Assembly: GCF_988242995.1 (NCBI RefSeq)
Contig: NZ_OZ547043.1
Direction: 5' to 3' (one strand)
Length of the DNA: 64,000 bases
Position numbers: made by a program. Shown piece after piece: positions 46,701-49,700 of this stretch. Numbering within the stretch: position 1 is the stretch's first letter; each line of letters starts with the position of its first letter.

Positions 46701-49700
46701 AGGGGATGGGCTGGTGATTCTGGCGATGATCATCTGGGGATTATTGACTAGCGCATTTATTACCCGACTCATACGCTTTCCGCATAGCGTGCTGGCGGAA
46801 GTTCGCCATCCAGTGCTGAGCAGTTTTGTGAGTTTGTTTCCGGCAACGACGATGCTGGTGGCGATTGGTTTTGTTCCGTGGTTTCGCCCACTGGCGGTGT
46901 GCCTGTTCAGTTTTGGTGTCGTGGTGCAACTGGCTTATGCCGCATGGCAAACTGCGGGATTATGGCGCGGATCTCACCCTGAAGAAGCTACCACGCCTGG
47001 ACTGTATCTGCCGACAGTTGCCAACAACTTTATCAGCGCAATGGCCTGTGGTGCGTTGGGCTACACCGACGCCGGTCTGGTGTTTTTAGGCGCAGGCGTT
47101 TTCTCATGGCTAAGCCTTGAACCGGTGATCTTGCAGCGTCTGCGCAGTTCGGGAGAATTACCCACGGCGCTGCGGACATCACTCGGCATTCAGCTCGCTC
47201 CTGCGCTGGTGGCCTGTAGTGCCTGGCTGAGCGTCAACGGCGGCGAGGGTGACACGCTGGCGAAAATGCTTTTCGGTTATGGACTGCTGCAACTGCTGTT
47301 TATGCTACGTCTGATGCCATGGTATCTCTCCCAGCCATTTAATGCTTCATTCTGGAGTTTCTCGTTCGGCGTATCTGCACTGGCAACCACCGGTTTGCAT
47401 CTGGGGAGTGGCAGCGATAATGGATTTTTTCATACGCTGGCGGTGCCGCTGTTTATCTTTACCAATTTTATTATTGCAATACTGCTCATCCGTACTTTTG
47501 CGCTTCTGATGCAGGGAAAATTGTTAGTCAGAACCGAGCGCGCCGTTTTAATGAAAGCAGAGGACAAAGAATGATCATTCGTGATGAAAACTATTTTACT
47601 GATAAATATGAATTAACCCGCACACACTCTGAAGTGCTGGAAGCGGTGAAAGTGGTTAAACCGGGTAAAACGCTGGATCTGGGCTGTGGCAATGGTCGTA
47701 ACAGTCTTTACCTGGCAGCCAATGGTTATGATGTTGACGCATGGGATAAAAATGCCATGAGTATCGCCAACGTCGAGCGCATTAAGTCCATTGAAAATCT
47801 GGATAATTTACACACCCGGGTCGTTGATCTGAATAACCTCACATTTGATGGACAGTACGATTTTATTATTTCGACTGTGGTGCTGATGTTCCTTGAGGCT
47901 AAAACCATCCCAGGGCTGATTGCCAATATGCAACGTTGCACTAAACCTGGCGGTTACAACCTGATTGTGGCGGCGATGGATACCGCTGATTATCCATGTA
48001 CCGTCGGCTTCCCGTTTGCCTTCAAAGAGGGGGAATTACGTCGATATTACGAAGGCTGGGAGATGGTGAAATACAATGAAGACGTCGGCGAGCTGCACCG
48101 CACCGACGCCAACGGTAATCGTATTAAACTGCGTTTCGCCACGATGCTGGCACGTAAAAAATGATCCGGTAAGAACAAAGCGCGTGAAAATTCCCCACGC
48201 TGAGATGGTTTACTGTTCTTCTTTTCGGTAAGCATATTTTTTATCGAAGGGATGTGAAATTAATCACAGTAGTCGAAGTTTTTTAGCCGCTTAACTTACT
48301 GAAATTTAACTACTGATGATTGACTTAGCCCCTTTTTCGGCATTGACTATGTCGTCTGAAAAGGGGCTAAAAAATTTATTTTCACCAACACTTTTTTTGC
48401 CACAACACGAAGCGGCGCTTTTTGCTATAACTTAGAAAGTAATATAATCATCTCAGGAAACTATTCATGCGTACCACATCATTTGCGAAAGTTGCAGCTT
48501 TATGCGGCTTGTTGGCTCTGTCTGGTTGTGCCTCTAAAATCACCCAGCCAGATAAATATTCTGGTTTTTTAAACAATTACTCTGATTTAAAAGAAACAAC
48601 CTCAGCAACAGGTAAACCTGTTTTACGTTGGGTAGACCCGAGTTTTGATCAAAGCAAATATGACAGCATCGTCTGGAACCCAATCACTTATTATCCGGTA
48701 CCGAAACCTTCAACCCAGGTAGGGCAGAAAGTTCTGGATAAAATTTTGAACTATACCAACACCGAAATGAAAGAAGCGATAGCGCAGCGTAAACCACTGG
48801 TTACCAACGCTGGGCCGCGTAGTCTGATTTTCCGTGGGGCCATTACCGGTGTAGATACCAGCAAAGAAGGGCTGCAATTCTATGAAGTGGTTCCTGTTGC
48901 ATTAGTGGTTGCGGGGACGCAAATGGCTACAGGCCACCGTACCATGGATACTCGCCTCTATTTTGAAGGTGAGCTGATTGATGCAGCGACTAATAAACCG
49001 GTTATCAAAGTCGTTCGTCAGGGCGAAGGTAAAGACCTGAATAACGAAAGTACGCCAATGGCTTTCGAAAATATTAAACAAGTTATTGATGACATGGCGA
49101 CCGATGCCACCATGTTTGACGTTAACAAAAAGTAGTTCCAGACGCGCCATCGTTAGATGGCGCTTTTTATTATCGGTTTCTGTTAGCGATTAAATTCAAC
49201 ACCACGTAACAAACGCCTCCGGCAATTAATCCCCAAAACGCAGAACCAATCCCGACCAGCGTCAATCCACTTGCCGTTACCAGAAATGCCACCACCGCCG
49301 CGTCGCGCTCACGCTCATTATGCAGCGCCTGATACAAACTGCCGCCAATGGTACTCAACAGCGCCAGACCTGCCAGCATCTGGATCCAACTTACGGGCAG
49401 GGCAGCCATCATCCCGGTAATGGCACTACCAAACAGACCTGCGAGCAAATAGAAAATGCCTGCAACGGCAGCGGCCAGCCAACGTTGATCTTTATCCGGA
49501 TGCGCTTCCGGGCTTTGGCAAATAGCCGCGGTGATTGCCGCAATACCGACGGAATAAACGCCGAAAGGGGAAAAAACCAGTGCCAGCAATCCAGTAAATA
49601 CAATTAATGGCGAAACAGGAGCTGAATATCCGGCGGCTTTCATTGCTGCGATACCCGGTGCGTTTTGCGATGCCATCGTCACCAGAAAAAGGGGGAGTGC

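Follow-up and report, generated by a model that had tools for sequence, protein, structure and literature searches.

The 34 bp between the convergent genes ydcL and ydcO in the 64,000-nucleotide stretch of contig NZ_OZ547043.1 analyzed here (the window) very probably constitute the ancestral, never-interrupted junction together with the ydcL terminator, with the insertion sequence IS609 having entered an ancestor of the A/B1 strains after the window lineage branched off. The vacancy, probably the original uninterrupted state of this site, is an ordinary, already known strain polymorphism. Alone, the polymorphism is of small importance, with an insertion sequence that is already annotated and an empty allele present in more than 2,000 sequenced genomes; nothing specific to the ydcL-ydcO junction was found in the literature on insQ, ydcL, and ydcO. 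Taken together, the occupied and vacant alleles form a clean natural pair for a TnpB element of E. coli whose nuclease gene is intact, and this pair could be used for testing TnpB-guided retention or homing in the native host.

The Vacant Junction and Its Occupied Counterpart

In the window, ydcL occupies positions 48467-49135 of the plus strand and encodes 222 amino acids, ending in the stop codon TAG at 49133-49135. Its assignment draws on the ORF list, the annotated ydcL of matching genomes, and a Pfam match to the DUF3313 lipoprotein family (E = 9.8e-63). On the minus strand, ydcO (49170-50342, 390 amino acids) was assigned from the ORF list and Pfam as a BenE-family transporter gene (E = 9e-161), and its stop codon TAA is the reverse complement of 49170-49172. 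The intergenic spacer between the two convergent genes, which carries no strand assignment, is exactly 34 bp long (49136-49169) in the sequence. A terminator scan and folding both place a hairpin, GCGCCATC-GTTA-GATGGCGC, at 49144-49163 of the plus strand, with an 8-bp stem and a 4-nt loop, and the sequence directly 3′ of it is the T-tract TTTTTAT (49164-49170, plus strand). No IS609-like DNA was detected in the whole 64-kb window by blastn with the K-12 IS609 as the query.

The initial annotation had described this 34-bp gap as lacking IS609, which both the sequence and the ORF list bear out. It had also stated that K-12 carries insQ (IS609) in the interval, in agreement with the annotation of NC_000913.3, and had proposed an alignment of the junction with K-12; in that alignment the K-12 interval is interrupted by IS609 and is not the same 34 bp. 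In NC_000913.3, the feature "insertion sequence:IS609" spans 1503161-1504908 and lies between ydcL (b1431) and ydcO (b1433). The element of K-12 MG1655 is 1,748 bp long and comprises tnpB (insQ, b1432, alias ydcM) and a tnpA pseudogene, yncK. The insQ reading frame is undamaged, and Pfam recognizes all three TnpB domains in it. The anatomy of IS609 is typical of the family: the element ends in TCAA and carries a Y1_Tnp gene together with a complete TnpB gene, and its directly repeated, imperfect subterminal hairpins lie at distances of 17 nt (left) and 9 nt (right) from the respective ends.

Base-by-base comparison and megablast agree on the insertion point of the occupied genomes, which is vacant in the window and falls between 49170 and 49171 (no strand), corresponding to K-12 positions 1503160 and 1504909. 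The K-12 junction reads GGCGCTTTTTAT, then the 1,748 bp of the element, then TATCGGTTT, and it is unambiguous, with no target duplication, scar, or deletion. The element is therefore the sole difference between the occupied and empty alleles, which align without gaps on both sides up to 49170/49171. An artificial "excised" K-12 junction aligned with the window over 1,200 nt with no gaps and 13 substitutions. The K-12 insertion splits the ydcO stop codon TAA into T and TA, so that YdcO of K-12 gains one Tyr and terminates at a TGA supplied by the right end of the element; the protein C-terminus reads ANRNR in the window and ADRNRY in K-12.

Frequency among E. coli Genomes

The occupied ydcL-IS609 junction is present in 3,268 of 5,426 complete E. 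coli genomes, O104:H4 and O111 among them, and the empty 34-bp junction in 2,043 of the same 5,426, including Seattle 1946 and UTI89. With 3,268 genomes occupied, the IS609 copy cannot be called K-12-specific, as the initial annotation had implied. IS609 at this site marks a large natural clade of A/B1-type strains and is no marker of the K-12 laboratory lineage, unlike the IS2/IS30 pair in ydbA, an arrangement present in only 357 genomes. In the window, ydbA is one uninterrupted 2,163-aa ORF, as had been stated, whereas the K-12 gene holds IS2D and IS30C. Of the insertions that had been called K-12-specific, only the ydbA pair is restricted to such a narrow set; IS609 is widespread. The accompanying proposal of an independent IS200 gain also agrees with the data: the window has three IS200-type copies at places where K-12 has no IS200.

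Two genomes were considered as informative variants of the site. The hit H35, considered as an E. coli with a small scar, has a normal 34-bp ydcL-ydcO gap, and its 36 extra bp lie between tehB and ydcL. EcN_Sk gave the sole 100% match to the artificial "excised K-12" junction and was considered as a natural excision. Over 25 kb this genome is 100% identical to K-12 except that three segments are cleanly missing (hokB-trg, hicAB, and IS609, the last cut at its annotated ends), and it was set aside as engineered or chimeric.

Target Motif, Predicted Guide Match, and Mini-IS609 Elements

At three independent loci with a full-length IS609 (ydcL/ydcO, yajI, and yjfZ/ytfB), TTTAT immediately precedes the left end. 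In the window it is found at 49166-49170 of the plus strand, where the left-end flanks of IS609 copies elsewhere mark it as the target motif, and predicted TAM, of IS609; in other Escherichia species the corresponding bases are CTGAT, CGGAT, or CTTAT. A published assay of the IS609 TnpB used TTAT as the TAM (PMC12781874), and the guide of TnpB is the flank adjoining the right end while the TAM is the left-flank motif (PMC8612924, PMC10055086). In the window, TTTAT is followed by TATCGGTTTCTGTTAGCGAT (49171-49190, plus strand), which the junction sequences identify as the DNA adjoining the right end of IS609 wherever the site is occupied. This segment agrees with the K-12 right flank, TATCGGTTTCTGTCAGCGAT, at 19 of 20 positions, and the only mismatch is a T in the window against a C in K-12 at position 14. 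We infer that TTTAT is a functional IS609 target and TAM, and 49171-49190 would be the guide segment of the omega-RNA predicted for the occupied allele. Rfam returned no omega-RNA or sRNA family match in the K-12 IS609 or at the window junction. Weak Rfam matches to miRNA models at 50341-50408 were rejected as merely a palindrome.

Escherichia sp. MOD1-EC7003, the nearest outgroup, has a 46-nt mini-IS609 at the ydcL-ydcO site. Such 46-nt elements occur in MOD1-EC7003, two prophages, and a plasmid, and each is built from an IS609 left end (16 nt), one end-type hairpin, and a right end (9 nt, terminating in TCAA). Three of the four copies follow TTTAT; among the three mini-IS609 copies whose left flanks were examined, two have TTTAT and the third, on the plasmid, has AGGAT. 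The left-end variant in MOD1-EC7003 (TTATAT in place of GTAAAA) differs at 5 of 16 nt and is shared with the plasmid-borne mini copy. The MOD1-EC7003 copy folds weakly (z = -0.2). The presence of mini-IS609 at unrelated loci suggests that these elements are mobile.

A more ambitious reading of the motif is that a mutation of the ydcL T-tract to TTTTTAT in the E. coli lineage produced a preferred IS609 landing pad that was hit at least two times independently, with the approximately 60:38 split of alleles representing a possible TnpB "homing" polymorphism. We consider this reading distinctly improbable. The two events would appear to be the full IS609 in the A/B1 ancestor and the 46-nt mini-IS609 in the nearest outgroup. 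If homing were real, InsQ and its omega-RNA would cleave empty alleles of the window type when these meet occupied ones via gene transfer.

History of the Site

Because excision in the IS200/IS605 family regenerates the original sequence exactly and without a scar (PMC10055086), the sequence alone cannot prove that IS609 was never inserted. The initial annotation had overlooked this limit, as well as the placement of the insertion point within the ydcO stop codon. The site is empty in four other Escherichia species that serve as outgroups: E. whittamii, Escherichia sp. E1V33, and two genomes named "E. coli" that diverge at the species level (about 88-91% nucleotide identity) all have ydcL and ydcO side by side, with the hairpin and no insertion sequence. 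Citrobacter sp. R56 has the same convergent ydcL/ydcO layout. The scan of the genome collection required Arg163 in its pattern and for that reason missed E. fergusonii, E. marmotae, and E. ruysiae. YdcL relatives at 90-93% identity were considered as further Escherichia species and proved to be E. coli deletion variants.

A rooted neighbor-joining tree was built from 2.8 kb of flanking sequence, a single recombining locus, for 12 taxa with 200 bootstraps. We take K-12 to be phylogroup A, O104:H4 and O111 to be B1, and the B2 reference strain to be B2. At this locus the window groups with the B2 reference, and the empty site is found in both of these, in the basal E. coli lineages (SCU-313/ECA64 and 20Ec-P-124), and in O157:H7. 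The occupied genomes K-12 and O104:H4 group into a clade from which the window is excluded in 199 of 200 bootstraps of this single-locus, 12-taxon tree. Between K-12 and O104:H4 the IS609 copies differ by 1.2% and the flanks by 0.8-0.9%, and this similar divergence points to one old, co-inherited insertion. That IS609 was never acquired, as the initial annotation had put it, is the most parsimonious history of the window lineage given the outgroups and the tree, and we infer that this lineage never held the element.

A very unlikely alternative is that the window lineage once had IS609 and that TnpA excised it scarlessly, which would have restored the 34 bp and the ydcO stop codon as a donor joint. 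Scarless excision is the normal mechanism of the family (PMC10055086), and the dead tnpA fails as proof against it. The K-12 gene has one nonsense codon, that of O104:H4 has a 5-bp deletion and a different nonsense codon, and one IS609 copy at another locus, yjfZ/ytfB in strain ECO_2_R, retains a full-length Y1_Tnp frame. Since the lesions differ, the ancestral copy at this locus probably carried an intact tnpA, and hence an active transposase by which it could have left the site. The K-12 copy never moved in mutation-accumulation lines (PMC5009759). The mini-element at the same site in MOD1-EC7003 would allow an older insertion followed by several losses. However, its left-end variant, common to the plasmid mini copy, points to a separate insertion and not to descent from a K-12-type element, and the TTTAT motif itself is missing from the deeper Escherichia species. 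A deeper gain would also need independent losses in B2, O157:H7, 20Ec-P-124, and SCU-313/ECA64, as opposed to a single gain. One genome does fit a loss: HH97 is empty and yet nested within the occupied clade (146 of 200 bootstraps), a sign that the element may be lost secondarily or its allele replaced.

Replacement is the basis of the other alternative for the window, in which an occupied allele would have been exchanged for an empty one acquired by homologous recombination from a strain with the vacant site. Recombination is frequent in E. coli, HH97 may have arisen in this way, and a tree of the flanks of a single locus would follow the imported allele. Nevertheless, collinearity with K-12 extends over the entire 64 kb of the window, the identity is fairly uniform (96-98.5%) and does not rise to a K-12-like tract near the site, and other B2-type genomes (Seattle 1946 and UTI89) are empty as well, which makes this alternative extremely improbable.

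IS609 belongs to the IS200/IS605 family, whose members move as single-stranded DNA by "peel and paste" with a Y1 transposase. The T-tract of the putative ydcL terminator leads directly into the ydcO stop codon, and in E. coli this tract, as TTTTTAT, creates the 5-nt motif TTTAT after which IS609 appears to integrate. Under the preferred history of a single insertion outside the window lineage, one IS609 would have entered the ydcO stop codon, between its T and TA, in an ancestor of K-12 (A) and O104:H4/O111 (B1) and would have been inherited vertically since then. The insertion would have moved the ydcL terminator hairpin 1.7 kb from ydcO and given YdcO its extra Tyr and a TGA stop derived from the element. 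The window lineage, with its B2 grouping at the locus, would have split before the insertion and kept the empty site.

The Hairpin as a Probable Terminator of ydcL

Folded as RNA, the hairpin region has a free energy of -16.7 kcal/mol on the plus strand, and the z score of -4.0 against shuffled sequences marks it as more than a chance structure. On the plus strand it has the form of an intrinsic terminator, with an 8-bp stem (6 GC pairs) and a 4-nt loop followed by TTTTTATTAT. The stem is 100% paired (72 of 72 cells) in 9 sequences from 6 genera, whose loop and flanks vary, and slid controls are 22-61% paired. One compensatory change, from A-U to G-C, is found in E. albertii and Raoultella. 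This covariation offers modest support for conservation of the structure by selection, since seven of the eight pairs never vary. Together these features suggest that the hairpin terminates ydcL transcription. The possibility that it is a relic of IS609 was rejected, as the hairpin is kept in genera with no insertion sequence at the site.

The initial annotation had described a single hairpin, flanked by T and A runs, that serves both genes. The T-run does follow the stem directly. The "A run", in contrast, lies 11 nt upstream of the stem and consists of the last ydcL codons (AAC AAA AAG TAG), and a role for both genes is overstated, with a T-tract in the ydcL direction only. Convergent genes often have a terminator in common, and a bidirectional intrinsic terminator would suit a symmetric hairpin that is spaced 8 nt from the ydcL stop and 6 nt from the ydcO stop and is stable on both strands (-15.5 kcal/mol, z about -4, on the minus strand). 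On the minus strand, however, the stem is followed by GTCTGGAACTAC, the nearest T-run being 11 nt away. The terminator scan reported the site on the plus strand only and none on the minus strand, where the stem leads into GTCTGGAAC. In addition, ydcO lies 1.7 kb from the hairpin in the IS609-bearing 60% of E. coli with no obvious harm, and E. albertii and MOD1-EC7003 keep the hairpin despite a ydcO deletion. A terminator shared by ydcL and ydcO is therefore unlikely, and termination of ydcL is the reading we retain.

Comparison with Known Systems

As in Rho-independent terminators of enterobacterial genes, a G+C-rich 8-bp stem, a 4-nt loop, and a T-tract are aligned on the ydcL strand; the difference from the usual bidirectional terminator is that no T-tract adjoins the hairpin for the ydcO transcript. 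IS609 of K-12, an IS200/IS605 family member, occupies the same site between identical flanks. It is present there and absent from the window, which has the sequence left after removing the element. The gene-less IS200/IS605 derivatives known as PATEs (PMC10055086) and other MITE-type elements resemble the 46-nt elements, which likewise keep IS609 ends without genes; the window has none, and the 46-nt copies were seen in MOD1-EC7003, the prophages, and the plasmid. Finally, the vacant sites of IS608, ISDra2, and ISGst (PMC8612924, PMC10055086) have an AT-rich motif 5′ of the insertion point, a position taken here by TTTAT, and show no target duplication, as in the window. The donor joint of this family is a product of excision, whereas the phylogeny suggests that the window site is ancestral and was never occupied.

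IS609 Is Absent from the ydcL-ydcO Junction

The convergent genes ydcL and ydcO are separated by only 34 bp in the window (49136-49169), as the initial annotation stated and as the sequence and ORF list bear out. The plus-strand ydcL ORF encodes 222 residues (48467-49135, stop codon TAG at 49133-49135; Pfam DUF3313, E = 9.8e-63), and the minus-strand ydcO ORF encodes a BenE-family transporter (Pfam E = 9e-161) and ends in a TAA that is the reverse complement of 49170-49172. Both gene names are also carried by the annotation of matching genomes. In Escherichia coli K-12 MG1655, IS609 with insQ does lie between these genes, in agreement with the initial annotation: NC_000913.3 places a 1,748-bp element, annotated "insertion sequence:IS609", at 1503161-1504908 between ydcL (b1431) and ydcO (b1433). 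The tnpA pseudogene yncK and insQ (b1432) lie within it on opposite strands, and InsQ carries the full set of three TnpB domains (HTH_OrfB_IS605, OrfB_IS605, and the Cas12f1-like TNB domain).

The alignment with K-12 that had been proposed as a check shows that K-12 does not share the 34-bp junction. Base by base, GGCGCTTTTTAT is joined to CCGGTGCGCC at the left end of the K-12 element and GGATGTCAA to TATCGGTTTCTG at its right end, whereas in the window GGCGCTTTTTAT runs directly into TATCGGTTTCTG. The element boundary leaves no ambiguity, no target sequence is duplicated, and comparison of the whole window with K-12 breaks at the same point (between 49170 and 49171, or 1503160 and 1504909 in K-12). 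What the initial annotation overlooked is that the insertion point falls inside the ydcO stop codon (T/TA on the plus strand). YdcO therefore ends in ...ANRNR* in the window and in ...ADRNRY* in K-12 (* denoting a stop), where the last bases of the element complete a Tyr codon and supply a TGA stop. A 12-nt string, ATATCGGTTTCT, occurs twice in the K-12 locus (L001, 7616-7627 and 8909-8920), once within IS609, close to the tnpA 5' end, and once spanning the right junction with ydcO; about 0.1 repeats of this type are expected by chance in 1.9 kb.

A Predicted Terminator for ydcL

The gap contains a plus-strand hairpin, GCGCCATC-GTTA-GATGGCGC (49144-49163), followed by TTTTTAT, with a folding energy of -16.7 kcal/mol (z = -4.0), far above shuffled sequence in stability. 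Its 8-bp stem is kept across six genera (nine sequences): 72 of 72 cells pair, against 22-61% in slid-register controls, and a single compensatory change replaces A-U by G-C in E. albertii and Raoultella. Eight different loop sequences occur, and the flanks diverge. This conservation rules out the hairpin as a relic of an IS. The T-tract directly follows the stem on the plus strand only, the terminator scan reports only that orientation, and on the minus strand the stem is followed by GTCTGGAAC. Of the T and A runs described earlier, the T run thus stands, and the supposed A run consists of the last ydcL codons, 11 nt from the stem. The hairpin is best described as a predicted intrinsic terminator of ydcL; the further proposal that it serves ydcO is unsupported, although it may have a part in terminating ydcO transcripts. 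In 60% of E. coli, ydcO gets by at a distance of 1.7 kb from the hairpin. Beyond ydcO, the divergent ydcO-sutR promoter region contains a long palindrome, GTGCGTTATAACG...CGTTATAACGCAC (about 50341-50408), plausibly a candidate operator for the adjacent regulator SutR; against Rfam it gave only weak and meaningless matches to miRNA models.

Element Anatomy and Target Motif

IS609 has the anatomy typical of the IS200/IS605 family. Directly repeated imperfect hairpins lie near its ends; the left one, CCCCATCCTTCAGGGCGGGG, is 17 nt away from the left end, and the right one, CCACGTCCTTCAGGGCGTGG, stops 9 nt short of the right end. Its right terminus is TCAA, and it has no inverted repeats. Full-length copies were compared at three loci (ydcL/ydcO, inside yajI, and between yjfZ and ytfB), and TTTAT lies directly 5' of the left end at all three. 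In IS608, the four nucleotides that precede the left hairpin on its 5' side, AAAG, pair with TTAC in the target; the IS609 counterpart would presumably be AAAA pairing with TTAT, which fits. A published screen in which an IS609 TnpB was purified used TTAT as its TAM, the motif 5' of the element (PMC12781874 supplement). Accordingly, window positions 49166-49170, the end of the ydcL terminator T-tract, are read as the IS609 target motif. By the family rule, the adjoining 20 nt on the right of the insertion point would be the guide of the occupied allele's omega-RNA, the TnpB guide RNA (PMC8612924; PMC10055086). The window and the K-12 flank are identical at 19 of these 20 positions. No Rfam model detects an omega-RNA of IS609, and for this reason the segment is called a predicted guide.

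Two tnpA nonsense codons, GR*LRR and IN*PP, recur across copies at different loci (L001, L006, L007, L008, and L009) in different combinations, one being common to K-12 ydcL/ydcO and 2D yajI and the other to O104:H4 ydcL/ydcO and cS51a yajI. This pattern suggests gene conversion between copies or mobilization of defective copies in trans. The insQ gene is intact in the four copies at ydcL/ydcO and yajI, and in the yjfZ/ytfB copy insQ is annotated 4 codons shorter with a different C-terminus.

Distribution of Occupied and Empty Sites

A 160-nt probe for the empty junction and an equivalent probe for the ydcL-IS609 left junction were compared with 5,426 complete E. coli genomes at a coverage of at least 80%. 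The empty junction was found in 2,043 and the occupied junction in 3,268, including O104:H4 C227-11, O111, BL21, HS, and many isolates from animals and the environment, so the description of this insertion as K-12-specific was wrong. The K-12 arrangement of IS2D, 50 bp, and IS30C inside ydbA is restricted to 357 genomes. As had been noted, ydbA is uninterrupted in the window (a single 2,163-residue ORF) versus interrupted in K-12, and the window carries IS200-type elements, with three copies absent from those positions in K-12. Each encodes a 152-residue Y1 transposase (about 1056-1757, minus strand; about 30560-31270 and about 44207-44917, plus strand). The first two are almost identical and the third is about 4% diverged. 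This third copy stands exactly in place of 349 bp of K-12 (1498555-1498903) comprising ydcH and its terminator, and ydcH is therefore absent from the strain. The ydbD-ynbABCD block (K-12 1475084-1482190) is also missing, at about 25683-25729, and directly after the second IS200, between hrpA and ydcF, about 1.5 kb (31290-32812) holds extra small ORFs of unknown function (31444-31836, 31814-32272, and 32392-32769).

Never Acquired, or Lost?

Members of the IS200/IS605 family excise without a scar (PMC10055086), so the window sequence alone cannot decide between a site never occupied and one vacated, and outgroups and a tree were used instead. A degenerate ydcL pattern yielded 13 species-level genomes. 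Of these, E. whittamii, Escherichia sp. E1V33, and two divergent species-level "E. coli" genomes (about 88-91% identity with the window here) have adjacent ydcL and ydcO, the hairpin, and no IS; at the position of TTTAT they read CTGAT, CTGAT, CGGAT, or CTTAT. Citrobacter sp. R56 has the same convergent layout with a hairpin. E. albertii NBRC 107761 retains the hairpin, has no IS, and has lost ydcO; about 20 nt resembling the ydcO 3' end remain after its hairpin.

In a rooted neighbor-joining tree of 2.8 kb of flanks (200 bootstraps), SCU-313/ECA64 and 20Ec-P-124 are basal and empty. The window groups with Seattle 1946, which we take to be a B2 reference, at a distance of 0.76%, both being empty, as is O157:H7. 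The occupied K-12 and O104:H4 form a clade, and the window falls outside it in 199 of 200 bootstraps. Between these two strains the IS609 copies differ by 1.2% and the flanks by 0.8-0.9%, as expected for one old, co-inherited insertion. Empty outgroups and basal lineages thus favor the earlier suggestion, for this site, that the strain never acquired the element, and we hold this to be probable: IS609 would have been gained once, in an A/B1 ancestor, and the window would retain the ancestral empty state.

Scarless excision of a former IS609 from the window lineage is unlikely against this topology, even though the ancestral copy was probably able to excise, since the tnpA lesions differ (one nonsense codon in K-12; a 5-bp deletion and a different nonsense codon in O104:H4) and the yjfZ/ytfB tnpA frame is open across the whole Y1_Tnp profile. 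An empty allele brought in by allele replacement is less likely still. Either process may have acted in HH97 (NZ_CP116409.1), which is empty although 146 of 200 bootstraps put it inside the occupied clade. Its flanks are 0.72% from K-12, closer than those of O104:H4, and it is a candidate for a natural loss without scar or for allele replacement. One genome, EcN_Sk (NZ_CP172017.1), labeled a stool isolate from Herdecke, is a perfect match to an artificial "excised K-12" junction. It was rejected as a natural excision: over 25 kb it is 100% identical to K-12 apart from three clean deletions, which remove hokB-trg, IS609 at its annotated boundaries, and hicA-hicB, and the genome looks engineered or chimeric.

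Mini-IS609 Elements

The nearest outgroup, Escherichia sp. MOD1-EC7003 (flanks 95-96% identical), carries a 46-nt mini-IS609, CCAGTGCGCCTTATATCCCCGTCCTTCAGTGCGTGGAGGATGCCAA, exactly after TTTTTAT at the ydcL/ydcO site (8061-8106 in reverse-complement coordinates of its locus, L017). It consists of 16 nt of the IS609 left end, one hairpin, and 9 nt of the right end. After it, 29 nt of the ydcO 3' end have been lost, and then most of ydcO and sutR as well. Relatives occur in an ECCNB12-2 prophage (L025, 2501-2566), in O157:H7 FRIK804 (L027, 1501-1551), and on plasmid pLS45-4 (L026, 1501-1548), and the mini-IS609 ends find some match in about 3,500 genomes. Both prophage copies follow TTTAT and the plasmid copy follows AGGAT. 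The FRIK804 copy belongs to an Stx1 prophage, where it is flanked by the antiterminator Q gene and stx1A and precedes stxA1 by about 40 bp. Because the left-end variant TTATAT of MOD1-EC7003 is shared with the plasmid copy and not with full-length IS609 (GTAAAA), we take the MOD1-EC7003 element to have inserted separately at the ydcL/ydcO TTTAT and not to stem from an older shared insertion.

Relation to Known Systems

K-12 IS609 did not transpose in mutation-accumulation lines (PMC5009759), and the peel-and-paste model already provides for scarless donor joints and a TAM common to TnpA and TnpB (PMC8612924; PMC10055086). One speculative reading, which we rather doubt, is that the T-tract of the ydcL terminator serves IS609 as a recurrent landing pad and is a natural TnpB homing polymorphism. 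The empty ydcL-ydcO site is real but amounts to an ordinary strain polymorphism that was already known, and known categories cover all of its parts: an annotated IS609, the peel-and-paste mechanism, and an intrinsic terminator.
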